Source: a virus (lineage: Duplodnaviria > Heunggongvirae > Uroviricota > Caudoviricetes). Taken from it: a DNA stretch of 7,740 bases. Location of the stretch: the IMG/VR virus record IMGVR_UViG_2875722834_000001, positions 1-7,740 of that record. One strand, written 5' to 3'. Below the pieces are notes generated by a model. That model searched no databases. It was not told where the DNA came from and saw only the letters and a list, made by a program, of their open reading frames with translations. Numbering within the stretch: the stretch's first letter is position 1; the number at the start of each line of letters is the position of its first letter. Both the position numbers and the translations under genes were made by a program. Shown here one piece after another: positions 1-7,740 of this stretch.

Positions 1-170
1 ACCTGCACTCCAATTATTGACCAGTTCCTCACCGCGCCTCCCTCTCCGGCGGCGCGAATGAACATCTTATTGGCTATCACATCCGACACAAATGTTGCCA
101 TCCCATTGCTTAATCGAATAAAAATCAGGCTACATGGGTGCTAAATCTTTAACGATAACGCCATTGAGGC

Positions 171-200
171 TGGTCATGGCGCTCATAAATCTGGTATACT
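171..200 (+). promoter_or_regulatory. Candidate sigma70 promoter for ssrA: -35-like TGGTCA (171-176), 18-bp spacer, -10-like TATACT (195-200)
   Basis: Hexamers read directly from the sequence. TATACT ends 14 nt upstream of the mature tmRNA 5' end at 215, consistent with a short 5' leader removed by RNase P. The -35 match is weak. No ORF of 60 aa or more lies in 1-214, so this stretch looks intergenic. Confidence 0.4.
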
Positions 201-214
201 TACCTTTACACATT

Positions 215-577
215 GGGGCTGATTCTGGATTCGACGGGATTTGCGAAACCCAAGGTGCATGCCGAGGGGCGGTTGGCCTCGTAAAAAGCCGCAAAAAATA
301 GTCGCAAACGACGAAAACTACGCTTTAGCAGCTTAATAACCTGCTTAGAGCCCTCTCTCCCTAGCCTCCGCTCTTAGGACGGGGATCAAGAGAGGTCAAA
401 CCCAAAAGAGATCGCGTGGAAGCCCTGCCTGGGGTTGAAGCGTTAAAACTTAATCAGGCTAGTTTGTTAGTGGCGTGTCCGTCCGCAGCTGGCAAGCGAA
501 TGTAAAGACTGACTAAGCATGTAGTACCGAGGATGTAGGAATTTCGGACGCGGGTTCAACTCCCGCCAGCTCCACCA
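215..577 (+). ncRNA. ssrA: tmRNA (SsrA, transfer-messenger RNA), mature 363-nt form
   Basis: Starts GGGGCTGATTCTGGATTCGACGGG and ends GGTTCAACTCCCGCCAGCTCCACCA (tRNA-like acceptor/T-arm with CCA). The internal tag reading frame at 304-336, GCA AAC GAC GAA AAC TAC GCT TTA GCA GCT TAA, encodes ANDENYALAA-stop, the E. coli/Shigella-type tag. The whole gene matches my recollection of E. coli ssrA. Confidence 0.95.
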
Positions 578-585
578 AATAAATC

Positions 586-620
586 AAGGGGTTACGTAAA
601 AGCGTAGCCCCTTTTTCTTT
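586..620 (+). terminator. Intrinsic terminator downstream of ssrA
   Basis: Left arm AAGGGGTTACG (586-596) pairs with right arm CGTAGCCCCTT (603-613), with one G-U pair, around loop TAAAAG, followed by the T-tract TTTTTCTTT to 620. Seen directly in the sequence. Confidence 0.6.
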
Positions 621-635
621 GGTAGTGGCGGCAAA

Positions 636-674
636 ATGGCGACAGACTTTTGCGTCCATCTTGCCTGTCGCCAT
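636..674. repeat. Perfect 10-bp inverted repeat ATGGCGACAG (636-645) / CTGTCGCCAT (665-674) with a 19-bp spacer; the octamer CCATCTTG is also repeated directly (656-663 and 671-678)
   Basis: Read directly from the sequence. It lies between the ssrA terminator and the RBS (AAGAGG 689-694) of the 701-1183 gene. Possible operator, recombinase or IHF arm site, or RNA hairpin. Confidence 0.5.
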
Positions 675-700
675 CTTGAAATCATGCAAAGAGGTTTCAC

Positions 701-1183
701 ATGGAAGAACTTCACTTTGTTTACATCAATGCAAATGGTCGTATCGGAGTTCACTCAATACAGAGCATCAGTTATAGCGAAAATCATATACAGGGCATTT
801 GTAAGAACACCGATCGAATAAAAACCTTCCGAAAAGACCGCATTCTTAAACAGTACGATTCACCAGAACAAGCCATTCAGGAATGCGCGTCATTCCTCCC
901 CGAAAACTACTCACACCTCACTAAGCAGTCTGGTCCGAAAAAAAATACATTCGATGTGTGTTTCACCGGATTTAAGAAAGCAGATAAAGAAAGATTGGTT
1001 GATAAGGCGAATGAACAAGGATTAACGGTAAGAACCTCTGTAACCCAAAGCCTTCAGATGCTCTGTTGCGGTTACAATGCAGGCCCATCAAAAGTATCGG
1101 CAGCCAGGATGAAAGGCACAATCATCATAGATGAGCCTGGCTTTATACATTTTCTTGAAACGGGTGAGATCCCAGATGAATAA
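701..1183 (+). CDS. Hypothetical 160-aa cargo protein: N-terminal WYL-like domain fused to a C-terminal BRCT-like domain
   Basis: Strong RBS AAGAGG 6 nt upstream of the ATG at 701. The N-terminal half contains RIKTFRKDRI, resembling the R-x-F-R-x-D-R-I hallmark at the end of WYL domains. The C-terminal half (NTFDVCFTGF ... GLTVRTSVTQSLQMLCCGYNAGPSKVSAARMKGTIIIDEPGFIHFL) resembles the BRCT fold pattern of NAD-dependent DNA ligase (LigA) C-termini. The region is visibly AT-rich compared with the adjacent phage core. Domain calls are by eye and need HMM confirmation. Confidence 0.7.
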   Translation: MEELHFVYINANGRIGVHSIQSISYSENHIQGICKNTDRIKTFRKDRILKQYDSPEQAIQECASFLPENYSHLTKQSGPKKNTFDVCFTGFKKADKERLVDKANEQGLTVRTSVTQSLQMLCCGYNAGPSKVSAARMKGTIIIDEPGFIHFLETGEIPDE

Positions 1184-1211
1184 AAACCTGCCGTAGCAGG
1201 TTCTCTTTCTC
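1176..1211. terminator. Bidirectional intrinsic terminator between the convergent 701-1183 gene and ogr
   Basis: Perfect 7-bp stem AACCTGC (1185-1191) / GCAGGTT (1196-1202) around loop CGTA. On the minus strand the stem is followed by TTTTTATT; on the plus strand by CTCTTTCTC. Confidence 0.55.
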
Positions 1212-1428
1212 AAAAATTCATATGCCCCTGACCACCTGGCAATGGATGTGGAGGAGCAGTAGCAATCAGTGCGGGTGTCACAATAAACCGGACCACTGTT
1301 TCATGGGTAACAAAAGTGCTCCCGCAGTTAATATTTTGGCACTGGCAGTAACGCTCTTTGGTGCTTTCAGTTACTTGAAAACTGCTCCTTGTGTGTGCCG
1401 CATGACCACACTTTGGACAATTCATCAT
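1210..1428 (-). CDS. ogr: Ogr-type zinc-finger late-gene transcriptional activator (P2 Ogr / 186 B / P4 Delta family)
   Basis: The ORF 1210-1473 contains MMNCPKCGHAAHTRSSFQVTESTKERYCQCQNINCGSTFVTHE..., with the C-x2-C ... C-x4-C spacing and overall resemblance to P2 Ogr (about 72 aa). The upstream 16 codons of the six-frame ORF are probably not translated, so the start is set at the internal Met at 1428; the start is uncertain by one codon (1425 or 1428). Confidence 0.85.
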   Translation of the reverse strand: MMNCPKCGHAAHTRSSFQVTESTKERYCQCQNINCGSTFVTHETVVRFIVTPALIATAPPHPLPGGQGHMNF

Positions 1429-1496
1429 ATCCAGATCCCTACCTTTGCTATCAGAATCATTGTAATGATACACAAAATATCAACATTGAGAACACT

Positions 1497-2597
1497 TTAT
1501 TCCATTTCAAGATCATCAATCTTCACTTCGAGTTCAATACTGGTCGTAAAACCATTATCCGGGCTGACGGTATGAGTCAGAGTCGTAATGGTCCATTCCG
1601 CATCATCTATCGGTTGTTTAAAGCCACTAACTTTCACTGGCATTTCCGTGTAAAGATCTGCCCGCCCTTCCGCCAGTTGTAGCGAGAATGACGCAACGCC
1701 GCGTTGCAGGCGTTCCCACTGCATTTTCGCTGCCCGTTCAGCGTTGCTCCGGTTGGCATAAGTGCGATTAAGTACCAGCACGTTTTCATCCGTACCCACC
1801 AGGTAATCGCCCTGCTTCGCTTCCGGCTCTTTCTTCTGCTTCTTAGTTCTGCGCTTACGCTTCACCGTGGTACTTTCTTTCTTCGCAGGTTCGCGGGTAT
1901 GCAACCAGCTGGCAATTACGCCCGTGTAGGCTCCGCGATCTGCCAGGGTAAATCGGTGACTGTCGCCGTCCTTGCGTGTGATAGTGATCACTGGCAGAGG
2001 TTTACCAGTGGCGCTTTTGCCCTGCCCCTGCCGGATGAATAACAGATTGCCATTTTTCACCGACGCGATGGCACCGTACTGTCGCGCCAGCCGCATCAGA
2101 AAACTGCCGTCACTCTCATTAGTCTGGTCTATATGCTCCACGGGCTTATCCGACAGGTCTTTACCCAGTGCCATCTTCAGCTTGTGCCGCGCGGCTATTT
2201 CCTTCACCACTTCCCCGACGGTGGTCTTATGCCACGATTTTTCACGGCGGGTATTCAGCGTTTCCCGAAAATCAGCACTTCGCGCCCGAATAGTCAGGCG
2301 GTCCGGTGCGCCAGTGTGTTCAATCTCGTCCACTGTGAATGCCCCTTTCGGGAAAAGCGGCTGCCCCTTCCAGCCCAGCGCCAGCGTAATAACCGCACCA
2401 CGGCGCGGCAGCACGATTTTTCCGTCAGCGTCATCCAGCTCCAGATCAAGCTGGTCCGCTTCAAAGCCCCGGTTATCCGTCAGCGTCAAACTCATCAGGC
2501 GGTTATCCAGCACAGTGGTGATATCCCTGCCCTCAATACTGATGCTGAATGCGGGAGTTTTGTTGCCTTTGTTAAGCAGTTCAGAGCTGAAATTCAC
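1497..2597 (-). CDS. D: P2 gpD-like tail protein (late control D family), 366 aa
   Basis: Size and position match the P2/186 order T-U-D-ogr. Its start overlaps the stop of the upstream U gene by 4 bp (ATGA-type coupling). GC-rich codon usage typical of the phage core. The identity rests on synteny, not on a recalled gpD sequence. Confidence 0.85.
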   Translation of the reverse strand: MNFSSELLNKGNKTPAFSISIEGRDITTVLDNRLMSLTLTDNRGFEADQLDLELDDADGKIVLPRRGAVITLALGWKGQPLFPKGAFTVDEIEHTGAPDRLTIRARSADFRETLNTRREKSWHKTTVGEVVKEIAARHKLKMALGKDLSDKPVEHIDQTNESDGSFLMRLARQYGAIASVKNGNLLFIRQGQGKSATGKPLPVITITRKDGDSHRFTLADRGAYTGVIASWLHTREPAKKESTTVKRKRRTKKQKKEPEAKQGDYLVGTDENVLVLNRTYANRSNAERAAKMQWERLQRGVASFSLQLAEGRADLYTEMPVKVSGFKQPIDDAEWTITTLTHTVSPDNGFTTSIELEVKIDDLEME

Positions 2598-3079
2598 GAC
2601 AGCAGCCCTCCCACCGTTTTACTGATATCGCTTAAGGCAGACGTTGCCGTGTCCTGCAGATTATTCAGTTGCGCACTGAGATCACCGAACATATCGGACA
2701 GGGATTCATCCACTCGTTTGAGCGACAGGGTGAACTCAATCCGGCGCGGCATACCGTCGCGGAAAAACTCCGTTTTAGTCTGATTCAGTCCCTCAATCAC
2801 ATACATGCCGTAAATCGTGCCGCTGCCTTCAATCAGGGGCCATGCTTTCCCCTGTTCTGCCATCTGCTCCAGTGCCAGCAACGACAGCCTGCCGCCTGTT
2901 ATTTCCGGCATAAGAACACCGGAAAGCGTCAGCATGTCGTTTTCCGGTCCCAGAAACTGCGTGGACGGACGTCGGTTTACCCGACTGTTTGCCGCATGTC
3001 GCCAGCTGCGTTGATACTGCAGTTCCTGATACGGAACGGTGCGCAGCATAAACACGTACAATCCCAGCACCATCATCAT
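2594..3079 (-). CDS. U: P2 gpU-like tail protein, 161 aa
   Basis: About 160 aa, located between the tape-measure gene and D, with 4-bp overlaps at both ends. The start is one of three consecutive Met codons (MMM). Confidence 0.85.
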   Translation of the reverse strand: MMMVLGLYVFMLRTVPYQELQYQRSWRHAANSRVNRRPSTQFLGPENDMLTLSGVLMPEITGGRLSLLALEQMAEQGKAWPLIEGSGTIYGMYVIEGLNQTKTEFFRDGMPRRIEFTLSLKRVDESLSDMFGDLSAQLNNLQDTATSALSDISKTVGGLLS

Positions 3080-4476
3080 GCGTCGTATCCCCCCTGATCG
3101 CTGTAGTTACTCCTGGCTTTTGCCTTCAGCCTGCGTTCACGTTCATCAAGCTGGCGTGCCACCTCCCGCGCAATATCCTGCGCACTTTGTCCTGGCTGCG
3201 TCTGAATGATGATCTGCGTCGGTGCCTCAATCCGTTGAACGAGCGGCACAGTGGCTGCGCGACTCACAATTGCTTCTCCACCTTTCGCGGGAAGTGCCAA
3301 GGGGTGCAACGGTGGAAGCTCTGCTGGCGCGGCAGCAACGCCCATCATTCCGGCAACAACGGCAGCCAGTGCAGCTGTATTTCTCCGGCTGGTCACATTT
3401 GCCGGGCCGTTAACAATTTCCGGCCCGTTTTCACCGACGATGCCAAACTGCCCGCGCGGGATATACCCGCCGCTGTCATACATCCCCGCAAAGCCATATC
3501 CCCATGATGGAAAACCACCCGATGGCATCATCACTTTACCGTCTGCATTCACCGTCGCAGGTTGCTGACGCGTCACGCTTTCCGGCAGTTTTGCCTTTGC
3601 GGCCTCTTTACTGACAATGCCGAGCTTCTCCAGCAACCAGGAAACGCCGGATTTCAGGGAGTCCAGCGGATGCATGACCATATTCAGCCCTTCCGCCAGT
3701 GCCTCCCCGAATCGCCGCCCCATTGCCGCTGCGCTCTGCAGTTCGGCAGAGGTCGACTTAACGGGCGTCAGCAGATCAGTAAACCAGCCCCACAGCGCCT
3801 GCACTTTGTCGCCAATCCACTGGAACACGGGCTTAAGCGGTTCGAACGCTGCACTGATGGGACCTGCCGCCGCTTTGAATCCTTCCACCACGCCACCGAG
3901 AAATGCGGTGATGGGTTGCCAGTATTTCCAGACAACCAGCGCCACGCCCGCCAGTGCAGTAACCACAAGACCTATCGGACTGAGCAGAGCACCTAACAGA
4001 CCAGATATGGCATACAGGGCAACGCGCAGCATCGCCAGTGGACCAGATGCCAGTACTCGCAGCACCGTGCCTGCGGCGGCCAGTCCACCGCGCAGTACCG
4101 CCAGAGGATTCATAAACATCACAGCAACAGCACGTAAACCGGATACCGCACCTGCAGCAACACGCCCGATCTCTGCGGTTGCACTCATGACGTAATGTGG
4201 CAGTTTCTCTTTTGCCACCTCATTAATCGGTACACATGGCAGGCAGTGAATCTGAGCCAGAAAACCATCTACCAGCGTTGAATCTTCAGTCAGATCGGTA
4301 AGCAACCAGATTTCTGGTGCAGTTAATAAATGAGGTTGAGCTGGGTTCAGCTTGTTCCGCAGAATCTGCACATTCATGCCTGCACGTTCTGCCAGTTGCA
4401 CCAGGTTGTGGCGCAGTGCAAAAGCCCTACAGGCTTCATCGAAATGCGGATGTTTGGAAATCTTGTAATCAAACAT
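3076..4476 (-). CDS. In-frame chimeric ORF (466 aa): CII-like regulator N-terminus (about 100-120 aa) fused to the C-terminal part of a tail tape-measure protein (gpT-like); probable deletion remnant
   Basis: The N-terminus [45 protein letters not shown]...[25 protein letters not shown] matches what I recall of phage 186 CII. The rest is Ala/Gly/Val-rich with hydrophobic segments typical of tape-measure proteins and sits directly upstream of U and D. Good SD (AAGGGGGG) before the ATG at 4476. A full gpT in P2 is about 800 aa. Confidence 0.75.
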
Positions 4477-4509
4477 GGTGCCCCCCTTAGAAAGTTCCCA
4501 TAATTGAAC

Positions 4510-4752
4510 TTACTTACCAACAATGACTCGGAAGTTGGAATGACCGAGGGATTCACGGACCTGATCGGTTTTGTACATCAGATAACGCAGGCTTACGCGA
4601 CCTTTGTTTTTTTCTTTCTTGACCATGTACTTAGCAAGTTGACCATGGTGAATTTTTTGGTAAACAGAGCCGCGGGAAATACCCTCCCACTCTGCGAACT
4701 CTGCAGGCGTAGCCATCTCTTTTGGTACACGAATTGAAATATCAGTACTCAT
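4510..4752 (-). CDS. Small HTH DNA-binding protein in the Apl/Cox position (putative excisionase and switch regulator), 80 aa
   Basis: It is the first gene of the operon leading into the CII-like gene, divergent from the cI-int operon, as for 186 apl or P2 cox. The segment TPAEFAEWEGISRGSVYQKI looks like an excisionase-type helix-turn-helix. Assignment is mainly by synteny. Confidence 0.65.
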   Translation of the reverse strand: MSTDISIRVPKEMATPAEFAEWEGISRGSVYQKIHHGQLAKYMVKKEKNKGRVSLRYLMYKTDQVRESLGHSNFRVIVGK

Positions 4753-4873
4753 AGTGCAGTATCTCTTACTTTGTGTGCGTGTTAGTTCGTTTTAGCCCGT
4801 CTCTTAAACTCTCACATCAAGAGACATGAAGACATTACGATCTTGATTCAAGATTGTCAAATGGAGATTACCA
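4753..4873. promoter_or_regulatory. Lysis-lysogeny switch region between the apl-like gene and cI, with candidate promoters and operators
   Basis: On the minus strand there is a consensus -35 TTGACA (plus coordinates 4855-4860), a 17-bp spacer holding the perfect 15-bp palindrome ATCTTGATTCAAGAT (4840-4854), and a -10-like TAATGT (4832-4837). A 7-bp inverted repeat GTCTCTT (4799-4805) / AAGAGAC (4819-4825) and several TCTCTTA-like repeats (4761-4810) are also present. The cI RBS is GGAG at 4863-4866. The plus-strand cI promoter may lie within the start of the apl-like gene (TTGAAA at 4734-4739), as in the face-to-face promoters of 186 and P2. Confidence 0.55.
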
Positions 4874-5506
4874 ATGTTAAACATCAGAATGGGTTCCGAT
4901 ACGGGAGGTAAGGCAGCTATTGAAAGGCTGCTTGAGGCTTATGGATTCACAACTAAGCAGGCATTAAGCGAGCACCTGAATGTCTCAAAAAGCACTATGG
5001 CAAACAGAGTGTTACGTGACAGCTTTCCTGCTGACTGGATAATTCAGTGCGCACTAGAAACCGGTGTTTCGTTGCTTTGGTTAGCTACAGGACAGGGAAG
5101 CATGAAAGGAGGAGCTGAGCCTGAGAAAAGTTCTCATAATGAGAACAAACAAGCAATTAAACCGTTATCCAAACTCATAACTCCAGCTATTCCTAAAGGA
5201 ACCCTGGAGAATGGACAACTCAGTATTGATGAAGAGATTTTCCTAGACCACAGCATATTACCTGCAGATTATGAAGAATCGATGTTCTTAGAAACCCCTA
5301 CTGATTGTTATCTCATCGATAAATCAATTAAACAGGTCAGCAATGGATTCTGGCTTATCAATATTGATGGAATGATTATTGTTGCAAAAATCATGCGGAT
5401 TCCCGGCAATAAGATTGTAGTAAATCAAGATGAAGCGTCTTTCGAGTGCTCTACTGATGATGTGGAAGTTATTGGGCGTGCAGTCAAAGTAATAAAGAGT
5501 ATCTAA
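4874..5506 (+). CDS. cI: Phage 186 CI-like immunity repressor, 210 aa
   Basis: The motifs LEAYGF, CALETGVSLLWLATGQG, GFWLINIDG, RIPG, FEC and IGRAVKV align with what I recall of 186 CI (CEAYGF, CALETGANLQWLLTGEG, GLWLVDIEG, KLPG, FEC, LGRVVGV). It lies immediately upstream of int on the same strand, as in 186. Confidence 0.85.
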   Translation: MLNIRMGSDTGGKAAIERLLEAYGFTTKQALSEHLNVSKSTMANRVLRDSFPADWIIQCALETGVSLLWLATGQGSMKGGAEPEKSSHNENKQAIKPLSKLITPAIPKGTLENGQLSIDEEIFLDHSILPADYEESMFLETPTDCYLIDKSIKQVSNGFWLINIDGMIIVAKIMRIPGNKIVVNQDEASFECSTDDVEVIGRAVKVIKSI

Positions 5507-5508
5507 AC

Positions 5509-6525
5509 ATGACTGTCAGAAAACAGCCAAACGGTAAATGGTTGTGCGAGTGCTATCCCAATGGACGCAATGGCAAGCGCGTGCGTAAGCAATTTGCTAC
5601 GAAAGGCGAAGCCATTGCTTTTGAAAGCTTCACAATGGAAGAAGTGAACAAAAAACCATGGCTGGGGGAAAAGGAAGATCGGCGACACCTATCAGAATTA
5701 ATTGAGCAGTGGTATTCCCTGTATGGTCAAACACTCGCAGACCCCAAGCGCCTCATGGCGAAACTTAGAATTATCTGTAATGGTCTAGGCGATCCCATCG
5801 CCTCAGAACTAACAGCCGGTGACTTTACGAAATACCGCGAAGCACGGTTAAAAGGTGAAGTACGAAATGAAGATGGCACGCTTATGTCGCCCGTTAAGCC
5901 CCGCACGGTAAACCTTGAACAGCGCAATCTATCATCGGTGTTCGGTACATTAAAAAAACTAGGACACTGGTCAGCACCAAACCCGCTGGCAGGACTTCCG
6001 ACCTTCAAAATTACCGAAGGTGAGCTGGCTTTTCTTTCCGTGGACGAAATCAAGCGCCTGTTGGCTGCATGTGCTGAATCTCAAAGCCCGAGCCTACTAA
6101 TGATTGCAAAAATATGCTTAGCTACCGGCGCACGGTGGAGTGAAGCCGAAAACCTTCAGGGCCACCAAATATCGAAATACCGAATTACTTATACAAAGAC
6201 AAAGGGCAAGAAAAACAGAACAGTACCAATATCTCAAGATCTGTATCACGAACTCCCCAAAAACAGAGGGAAGTTATTCACGCCATGCAGAAAATCTTTT
6301 GAGCGTGCAGTAAAAAGAGCAGGTATTGACTTGCCAGAGGGCCAGTGCACGCATGTATTGCGCCATACATTCGCTAGTCACTTTATGATGAATGGCGGAA
6401 ATATTCTTGTATTGAGAGATATTTTAGGGCACTCAGATATAAAAATGACAATGGTCTATGCCCATTTCGCACCAGAACATCTTGAAGATGCTGTTACTAA
6501 AAACCCCTTATTTAACTTAAAGTGA
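5509..6525 (+). CDS. int: Tyrosine site-specific integrase, P2/186 family, 338 aa
   Basis: The C-terminal catalytic region HVLRHTFASHFMMNGGNILVLRDILGHSDIKMTMVYAHF carries the R-H-x-x-R ... Y signature of tyrosine recombinases; an upstream conserved Arg lies in LATGARWSEA. It starts 2 nt after the cI stop, suggesting translational coupling. Confidence 0.95.
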   Translation: MTVRKQPNGKWLCECYPNGRNGKRVRKQFATKGEAIAFESFTMEEVNKKPWLGEKEDRRHLSELIEQWYSLYGQTLADPKRLMAKLRIICNGLGDPIASELTAGDFTKYREARLKGEVRNEDGTLMSPVKPRTVNLEQRNLSSVFGTLKKLGHWSAPNPLAGLPTFKITEGELAFLSVDEIKRLLAACAESQSPSLLMIAKICLATGARWSEAENLQGHQISKYRITYTKTKGKKNRTVPISQDLYHELPKNRGKLFTPCRKSFERAVKRAGIDLPEGQCTHVLRHTFASHFMMNGGNILVLRDILGHSDIKMTMVYAHFAPEHLEDAVTKNPLFNLK

Positions 6526-6534
6526 TAAATAAAA

Positions 6535-7740
6535 ATGCATATTCAACAAGAACTCGATGAAGAACTTAATAATCTTTTTGACACTATTAGAAAAAAATCA
6601 AGTATTCGACCACCAATTGAGATTGAAAAAAACCTTACTTTGATAGATGACTTCGCTCTAAAATGCAGTAAATTCCGGGGTTGTTTAGTAGATTACATCC
6701 AGGAAAATGATAACAGGTTAAGTTTACGCTTGCGCAATAGACTTAGAGCTGTAGATATCATGCAGAAAGAAATCGTCTCGTGTTTAGAGTGTTTTTTATC
6801 AGGGGATATTAAGTCGGCATATGACTCATTTGAAAGTATGCTAGAGCCACGAACTATATCTCGTCATATTGAAAATATATGCATACCTCTTTCTGACTTA
6901 TGTAATGAAGATAAACCATTATTCCGCGTTAGAAAATCTGATACGCCACTTACATCAAGAAGAGATATGTTTCATATTCCGTTCAGTCAGCGTCACTTTG
7001 TTAGAGCACAGAGATTTTCAGTTGCTGGTCTACCCTGTTTATATTTAGGAACATCTCTTTATATATGCTGGAGAGAAATGGATAAGCCAGATTTTGATAA
7101 GCTATATATATCTGCCTACAAGATCGATAAAAATAATGACTCAAAGGTACTAAATATAGGACCTGATTTTTTATATAAACAGAGATCTATATTAGAGTCA
7201 AAAAGAAAGAACAAATATGATTTCAATACCAAACTCTCATATTTAGCACTTTGGCCTTTGATAATTGCATGCAATTATTTAAAAAAATATGACAATGCTT
7301 CCTTTGTACAAGAATATATTATCCCCAATCTTTTGATGCAATGGATCAGTCGGAACAGCAATGAGAATGTTGTTGGTATAGCCTACCGCTCAACAAAATT
7401 ACCTGCTAATGCCTTAGGTAGCAGAGGAATAAATGTGGTACTTCCTCCAAAAGTGCGTTACGAGGAGATGGCCAATAATGAATTTTGTCCAAATCTAGCG
7501 AAAATTTTCAAATTCACATTGCCTGTATCTTGGCAGGTCCTAAAAACAGTTGAGTACGTGCCTGAATCAGTTGCACAATCCGATCGAGAGAATCTCAGCA
7601 GAAGGCTACGAAGAAGAAAAAATCGTGAGCTAACAGGAAGCATAGATGATGAAATTTTGAACATCTATAATTTAACTGACTTTTATAAACTCGAAACTTG
7701 TATGGATGAAATTCAAGTATATGCCCATATTAAACCATGA
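6535..7740 (+). CDS. Hypothetical 401-aa cargo protein with a central RES-domain signature (putative NAD+-targeting toxin or defence effector)
   Basis: RFSVAGLPCLYLGTSLYICWRE gives Arg160-x9-Tyr170-x10-Glu181, and GIAYRSTKLPANALGSRGINVVL gives Ser286, matching the conserved Arg/Glu/Ser and their spacing in RES-domain toxins. There are long N- and C-terminal extensions, including the basic stretch RRLRRRKNR. The region is very AT-rich. The ATG is 9 nt after the int stop with no recognisable SD. The stop codon is at the last three bases of the window. Confidence 0.75.
   Translation: MHIQQELDEELNNLFDTIRKKSSIRPPIEIEKNLTLIDDFALKCSKFRGCLVDYIQENDNRLSLRLRNRLRAVDIMQKEIVSCLECFLSGDIKSAYDSFESMLEPRTISRHIENICIPLSDLCNEDKPLFRVRKSDTPLTSRRDMFHIPFSQRHFVRAQRFSVAGLPCLYLGTSLYICWREMDKPDFDKLYISAYKIDKNNDSKVLNIGPDFLYKQRSILESKRKNKYDFNTKLSYLALWPLIIACNYLKKYDNASFVQEYIIPNLLMQWISRNSNENVVGIAYRSTKLPANALGSRGINVVLPPKVRYEEMANNEFCPNLAKIFKFTLPVSWQVLKTVEYVPESVAQSDRENLSRRLRRRKNRELTGSIDDEILNIYNLTDFYKLETCMDEIQVYAHIKP

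Follow-up and report, generated by a model that had tools for sequence, protein, structure and literature searches.

The locus described here raises the question of how a large open reading frame (ORF) that lies directly behind the integrase gene of a prophage is expressed. It belongs to a stretch of 7,740 nt (hereafter the window), positions 1 to 7,740 of the Caudoviricetes record IMGVR_UViG_2875722834_000001, and all positions refer to this window unless a locus label is given (L001 being E. coli LF82). Three genes follow each other on one strand: cI, encoding a 186-type repressor (4874..5506, +; Pfam Phage_CI_repr 1.9e-30, Phage_CI_C 3.5e-30), int, encoding a tyrosine integrase (5509..6525, +; Pfam Int_N 9.4e-29, Phage_integrase 5.6e-24), and a gene for a 401-aa protein, here called cargo (6535..7740, +), the stop codon of which closes the window. 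The initial annotation had called cargo a RES-domain gene and proposed, from position, that it is expressed by read-through from the cI-int lysogenic operon. Every check that was run agrees with this positional argument, namely the operon plan of phage 186, the co-variation of cI and int RNA in E. coli LF82, the position of the terminators and the bare-ORF nature of related cassettes. It is reasonably likely that cargo is the third cistron of a pL-cI-int operon, expressed at a low level in the lysogen with its translation tied to that of int, and that it encodes a stand-alone RES effector.

Both junctions can be read directly from the sequence and are as tight as first described. The cI stop codon (TAA, 5504-5506) is followed by two bases (ac) and the int ATG at 5509 (junction 5504..5511, +), and the int stop codon (TGA, 6523-6525) by nine bases (taaataaaa) and the cargo ATG at 6535 (junction 6523..6537, +). 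Because an in-frame TAA occupies 6526-6528, ATG 6535 is the first possible start of cargo; homologues begin at the same place, and P27, D39 and C44 are invariant. A 186-type cI gene with int directly behind it on the same strand is the arrangement of a 186-type lysogenic operon.

No terminator-like hairpin was found on the + strand from 4400 to 7740, in agreement with the earlier statement that none separates int from cargo. Folding of the junction RNA over 6480-6560, which the initial annotation had suggested (z = -1.5), and over 6440-6620 (z = -0.2) gave no hairpin with a U-run and no significant structure, and an Rfam search across the window (E <= 1) returned the tmRNA gene ssrA alone (215-577), with no RNA element at the int-cargo junction. 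Past the lysogenic promoter pL, no + strand terminator comes before the native one of ssrA beyond attR (L001 12233-12254), about 290 nt past the cargo stop. A candidate pL (TTGAAA-17-CAGTAT; 4734..4762, +), assigned by position and homology, lies in the 5' end of the apl/cox-like gene (4510-4752, -). It scores 8.7, the third best in 4650-6540 in a position-weight scan, and corresponds by alignment to the pL region in the phage 186 annotation; it is faced by a candidate pR from the consensus scan (4880..4853, -), both assignments being sequence matches only. The consensus scan gave no promoter-like site between int and cargo, and no such site above chance lies anywhere from cI to cargo.

The plan of this region is that of phage 186 itself. 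As annotated in GenBank U32222.1, phage 186 carries pL, cI, int, orf69, arm sites, the attP core and a "predicted terminator of lysogenic operon". As in the window, a third co-oriented ORF separates the int stop from the arm sites, and only past the att core does a terminator follow; cargo thus stands where phage 186 has orf69. The two systems differ in detail. The phage 186 cI and int genes overlap by 1 nt (TAATG), whereas those of the window are 2 nt apart; the att site is in ssrA in the window and in tRNA-Ile in phage 186, and the Int proteins are only distantly related at the DNA level. The occupants also differ: orf69 encodes an 83-aa repeat protein (CP69), starts 14 nt past int and has a Shine-Dalgarno (SD) sequence, GGAGG, of -9.9 kcal/mol, while cargo encodes a 401-aa RES-fold protein 9 nt past int and has no SD.

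The interval from 4800 to 7740 is 100% identical to prophage Cartapus (Peduoviridae, Elveevirus) of E. coli LF82 and 99.9% identical to Salmonella phage RE-2010. In 10 published RNA-seq samples of LF82, in which the prophage is full-length, cI and int RNA co-vary (r = 0.976), and the RNA of the divergent apl-like gene shows no such co-variation (r = 0.13); int RNA lies 2.19 log2 units, or about 4.6-fold, below cI (PMC9928086 S1 Table). These values and the phage 186 record agree with the premise of the initial annotation that cI and int share a lysogenic transcript.

The interval between the int stop and the arm sites, here called the slot, was compared in 80 viral contigs with an Int 90-96% identical to that of the window and in four E. 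coli genomes. Seven contigs were set aside for want of a usable int ORF or of sequence past it, and 73 were scored; as related phages are among them, the counts do not represent independent events. In LF82, an arm-site pair (TGGCGAC/TGGCGGC; L001 11948-11965) starts 7 nt past the cargo stop and forms the right edge of the slot, and the 46-bp core of attR (L001 12061-12106) lies 120 nt past the same stop, so that cargo is inside the prophage. The slot is empty in 16 of the 73 contigs. Among the 57 occupied slots, 49 contain a co-oriented ORF that starts between -38 and +26 nt relative to the int stop and extends to the arm sites or into them; of the other eight, three have a cargo on the opposite strand, two contain copies degraded at the N-terminus, and three are disrupted by insertion sequences, degraded or unclear. 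At 44 distinct int-cargo junctions, the distance falls within -19 to +14 nt in 41 cases and within -8 to +10 nt in 30, and several junctions are ATGA or TAATG overlaps, which recur in different families. By this geometry the cassettes are bare ORFs with essentially no regulatory DNA.

On the left, Int sequences agree as far as ...AVTKNPL, after which the last 3-12 residues depend on the cargo that follows (loci L006-L085). The megablast homology of the relatives stops at window positions ~6509-6527, and in empty slots the Int tail reads HNLNW(H/N/K)R, with the arm sites beginning 4 nt past the stop. Since the Int tail changes with the cargo after KNPL, recombination of the cassettes is bounded on the left within int. 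In several relatives the cargo ORF enters the arm sites, and unrelated proteins share the C-terminal tail GG(T/N)LAAEH.

At least six unrelated families occupy the slot. When the 80 contigs and four genomes are taken together, RES-like genes are the commonest (23 loci), followed by genes for a ~350-aa membrane protein with N-terminal membrane helices (16 loci), a ~510-aa protein (8), a 222-aa membrane protein (3), a dCTP-deaminase-like protein that heads a two-gene cassette (2) and a SMEK-domain protein (1). The SMEK-domain occupant matches the PADLOC "Aga" model at 2.7e-30. Most of the non-RES occupants (at L003 6731-7789, L005 6737-7405, L006-L012, L032, L059 and L080) have no family assignment.

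SD strength, expressed as the anti-SD duplex energy over -18..-4, is -10 to -12 kcal/mol for the phage genes D, U and cII, -6.4 kcal/mol for cI, -2.4 kcal/mol for int (weak, AAAGAG) and -1.6 kcal/mol for cargo, the last being indistinguishable from the window background (mean -1.3). The statement that cargo has no SD is hence correct for the copy in the window, but about one third of the related junctions carry a weak-to-moderate SD. The 20 nt 5' of the cargo start are 85% A/U. In E. coli, termination-reinitiation works at gaps from -8 to +10 nt, with an efficiency that is already lower at a few nt and mostly gone by ~38 nt (PMC10666635). Chromosomal copies of the RES-like family are preceded by a spacer of 300-500 nt and have SD energies of -4 to -5.8 kcal/mol; the difference in SD strength between slot and chromosomal copies is small and involves only three chromosomal examples.

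In the cargo protein, a helical bundle (residues ~1-115) precedes a divergent RES-fold core (~125-340), which is followed by further helices at the C-terminus. Against the Pfam RES profile (PF08808) it scores 11.9-14.1 bits (E 0.05-0.23), below the gathering cut-off of 23.2 and over profile positions 11-48 only. However, when 59 diverse relatives were compared with PF08808, 17 gave matches at E <= 0.01 (best 6e-5), and no further family turned up repeatedly. The active-site residues of NatT are R23, R82, Y93, S184 and N193 (PMC11535050). Their counterparts in cargo, assigned by motif order and spacing and not by superposition, are R131/R133, R160, Y170, S286 and N300, to which the eponymous Glu, E181, can be added. 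Among the 59 relatives R160, Y170 and E181 are conserved in all, the position of S286 is occupied by Ser in 52 and Thr in 7, and N300 is kept in 56. The fold is RES/ADP-ribosyltransferase-like. The term "RES domain" used in the initial annotation is thus not carried by the Pfam score of cargo alone, but it is supported by the relatives, the fold and the active-site residues. Cargo is accordingly taken as a divergent RES-fold enzyme that is probably active.

Other searches with this protein were negative. The solved RES structures showed no sequence match, PDB sequences searched with profiles yielded either nothing or spurious designed helical proteins, and Foldseek against the PDB returned insignificant helical-bundle matches only. 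PADLOC-DB 2.0 contained no family at E <= 1, NCBIfam gave no match, and the PHROG that includes cargo is a family of unknown function. The RES-like family itself is large: clustering at 50% identity gives 2,457 representatives, from Proteobacteria, Bacteroidota, Acidobacteriota, Firmicutes, Planctomycetota and other phyla.

The initial annotation had found it puzzling that a toxin should lack a visible antitoxin. The puzzle is real but not particular to this gene. No Xre-, MbcA- or ParS-type antitoxin adjoins cargo, the upstream gene being int, and a survey of family neighbours in 80 genomes from many phyla found no general conserved partner or antitoxin-like neighbour. The neighbours are mixed (integrase, CI, DNA methylase, Abi_C, DUF4145, Metallophos+PRTase and others), and the largest conserved cluster comprises seven loci, all from Bacteroidota. 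Because the family is stand-alone and has no universal partner in these genomes, a RES-Xre type II toxin-antitoxin toxin was ruled out. In comparison with the toxins of the RES-Xre, MbcT-MbcA, NatT-NatR and ParT-ParS systems, cargo is about twice as long and has in addition an N-terminal helical bundle, an insertion of ~100 aa and a C-terminal extension. Since these extra domains surround the RES core and no partner is conserved, the missing antitoxin is best explained by a self-contained effector. In a small sample, the methylase, Abi_C, DUF4145 and Metallophos+PRTase neighbours and the rare members fused to restriction-endonuclease domains are a hint of conflict systems.

Two groups of family members show other arrangements. 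In the Bacteroidota cluster (L115, L120, L125, L128, L133, L137 and L145), a conserved protein of ~220 aa without a Pfam match is encoded directly 5' of the RES-like gene, at a spacing of -14, -4 or +1 nt, and is a possible lineage-specific partner or antitoxin. In the 186-type prophage of Klebsiella sp. R390 (L098 2398-5255), a RES-like member 41% identical to cargo is found between cI and int and starts 9 nt past the cI stop. A terminator-like hairpin follows at L098 4214-4233, with a T-run that contains the int ATG, and a promoter-like site lies just upstream. This prophage thus shows a different wiring of the same three genes.

Taken together, these features suggest the following course of expression. 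In the lysogen, transcripts would start at pL, and in intact phages also at the CII-dependent pE during establishment; they would pass through cI and int into cargo, and in the prophage no signal would stop them before the ssrA terminator past the att core. For the circular form (attP), the transcript would be ended by the phage-supplied intrinsic terminator directly past the att core (586..613, +; 12-bp stem and T-run). Cargo would contribute no promoter, usable SD or terminator of its own. It would probably be translated by ribosomes arriving from int, the stop codon of which is 9 nt upstream, with perhaps some SD-independent initiation on the A/U-rich leader. Because int is weakly translated and its RNA is well below that of cI, cargo would be made steadily at a low level. 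This level would be set by CI autoregulation and would fall on the switch to lytic growth. The product would most likely be an NAD+-consuming or ADP-ribosylating effector that is held inactive by its own extra domains, and would most plausibly serve the lysogen as an anti-phage function of the abortive-infection type.

Several observations weigh against this proposal. In view of the sub-threshold Pfam score and the lack of PADLOC and NCBIfam matches, the activity and the defence role of the window protein are putative. The start region is unremarkable in accessibility (probability of being unpaired 0.51, background 0.47), and the idea of an "unusually open" leader is unsupported. A gap of 9 nt implies reduced reinitiation according to the E. 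coli data cited above. The three opposite-strand cargos indicate that read-through is not the sole way in which the slot is used, and the consensus scans leave room for a weak promoter inside int. As int RNA is already reduced relative to cI, read-through may decay further before cargo, and such an AT-rich gene (31-37% GC, int 45-48%) could be silenced by H-NS or its transcript shortened by Rho. The LF82 RNA-seq supplements contain no value for cargo (CARTA_33), because the gene is unannotated in the LF82 record used; scoring it there as a "moron" was impossible for the same reason.

Three other explanations were weighed against read-through from the lysogenic operon. According to the first, the tight packing reflects mere exchange of cassettes between the int end and the arm sites, and the protein serves lysogenic conversion or counter-defence and is neither toxin nor defence factor. 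The variation is indeed bounded on the left at one conserved point, after KNPL, and on the right at the arm sites; cargo has no PADLOC match, and no RES-domain toxin-antitoxin system has been linked to immunity (PMC11535050). However, exchange by flanking homology does not require the loss of every regulatory base, and ATGA and TAATG overlaps recur in different families. The conflict-type neighbours and restriction-endonuclease fusions of the RES-like family, and slot occupants such as the dCTP-deaminase-like and SMEK-domain proteins, also argue against a role outside defence. This explanation appears unlikely.

The second explanation takes cargo for a moron, that is, an autonomously expressed prophage accessory gene as defined in PMC9928086, where such genes are classically autonomous. 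Its promoter would be hidden in the 3' part of int or in the AT-rich junction and be independent of pL, and its translation would be SD-independent. The low GC content typical of morons is present, two weak sites can be pointed to (TTGCCA-17-TGTATT, 6331-6359; TTACTA-18-TAAAGT, 6494-6523), and all cassettes would be served by one promoter if it lay in conserved int sequence. However, the first of these sites, the best in the last 250 nt of int by position-weight scan (score 7.7), was equalled by 71% of shuffles, and the consensus scan found none between int and cargo. Cassettes bring no upstream DNA, whereas the chromosomal copies of the family keep their long spacer. Cargo has only 9 nt of non-coding DNA upstream and 7 nt downstream, and it is not flanked, as a moron is, by a promoter-like site above chance and a terminator. 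We give this explanation little credence.

Equally improbable is the third, in which an established lysogen makes next to no cargo, because read-through is lost to Rho, H-NS or RNA decay and the SD-less start is little used, and expression comes mainly in bursts, for instance from the CII-activated pE together with Int just after infection. The low int RNA, near background in overnight LB, and the SD-less, AT-rich gene are in line with it, and the phage 186 record annotates a pE that feeds the same operon. However, the E. coli HH107 prophage, which has lost cII and most other phage genes, keeps cI, int and cargo intact and 100% identical to LF82, and the active-site residues are strongly conserved; neither fact proves expression in the lysogen. 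Last, a fusion of Int and cargo by stop-codon read-through was rejected in view of the tandem in-frame stops (TGA TAA) and the varying frame relation in relatives, and the frame shared by the two ORFs is probably coincidental.

An arrangement of this kind is already known. In phage lambda, the exclusion genes rexA and rexB are co-transcribed with cI from PRM and are passengers of the repressor operon in the lysogen. They follow cI and not int, comprise two genes with their own translation signals, and belong to an unrelated family. Together with orf69 of phage 186 they are precedents for the position of cargo. The integrase-att interval of P2-like prophages has been described as a minor defence hotspot (PMC13586616), and the validated defence gene PD-T7-4 as "often overlapping an integrase gene" (Vassallo et al., PMC9519451). 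No PADLOC model, including PD-T7-4, matches cargo, and the PD-T7-4 model did not match the five other cargo representatives tested. These two studies describe neither a promoter-less, ORF-only cassette geometry nor the RES-like family; the geometry of the slot and the large stand-alone RES-like family as its main occupant are new.

If cargo is a passenger of cI-int, its level would be fixed by repressor autoregulation and it would be silenced when the prophage goes lytic. This would let a phage arm its host at little cost and with no harm to itself, and would explain why a potentially lethal NAD+ enzyme needs no accompanying antitoxin. Such genes would be missed by screens that clone candidates with their native promoter, since there is none, and by RNA-seq detection of morons when they are unannotated, as in LF82; the models of defence finders do not cover them either. 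No link between RES enzymes and immunity has been made so far, and the RES-like family is one of considerable size. A broader proposal, which is tentative and on balance doubtful, would make the few bases from the int stop to the arm sites, in this group of 186-like phages, a dedicated acceptor for promoter-less, single-ORF cassettes that bring their own last Int codons, are expressed at a low, CI-governed level through coupling to Int and are turned off on induction, with the stand-alone, self-restrained RES-like occupant as the first RES-domain NAD+ enzyme in anti-phage immunity.

The window as a whole is a natural 7.5-kb deletion remnant of a 186-like prophage of the Cartapus/RE-2010 type, inserted at ssrA in E. 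coli HH107. An ORF on the - strand (3076-4476) encodes the first ~112 residues of CII fused in frame to a C-terminal portion of the tail tape-measure protein, and about 25 kb of prophage are deleted at the junction, near 4145. This junction was seen only in HH107, the single complete genome that matches the whole window including the fusion, which is why the window is read as a deletion remnant. Strain BE2-5 carries another deletion remnant of a related prophage at ssrA, and the apl-cI-int-cargo row is intact there as in HH107. From left to right, the window contains ssrA, a BRCT-like ORF, ogr, D, U, the T::cII fusion, the apl/cox-like gene, cI, int and cargo.

At the left end, the attL copy of the 46-bp att core (533..578, +) coincides with the 3' end of ssrA and repeats LF82 L001 12061-12106. 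Beyond the phage-supplied terminator lie a pair of 186-type Int arm sites (TGGCGGC and TGGCGAC; 626..643, +), recognised by their sequence and the consensus in PMC3448106 and the phage 186 record, and an inverted arm site (GTCGCCA, 667-673). A repeat search found short two-copy matches only; one of them, 6454-6474/7717-7737, was judged a chance match because the C-terminus of cargo is not conserved in homologues. Between the arm sites of attL and ogr, the BRCT-like ORF (701-1183, +) encodes a protein of 160 aa, which matches phrog_2561 ("DNA ligase") and PADLOC PDC-S48 (1.8e-7) and is named "putative exonuclease" in the Cartapus record. In LF82, no other Cartapus gene is transcribed as highly (15-fold above background; PMC9928086 Table 1). 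With this ORF, the opposite end of the prophage has a second position for cargo, just 3' of the strongly transcribed ssrA and the terminator at 586-613.

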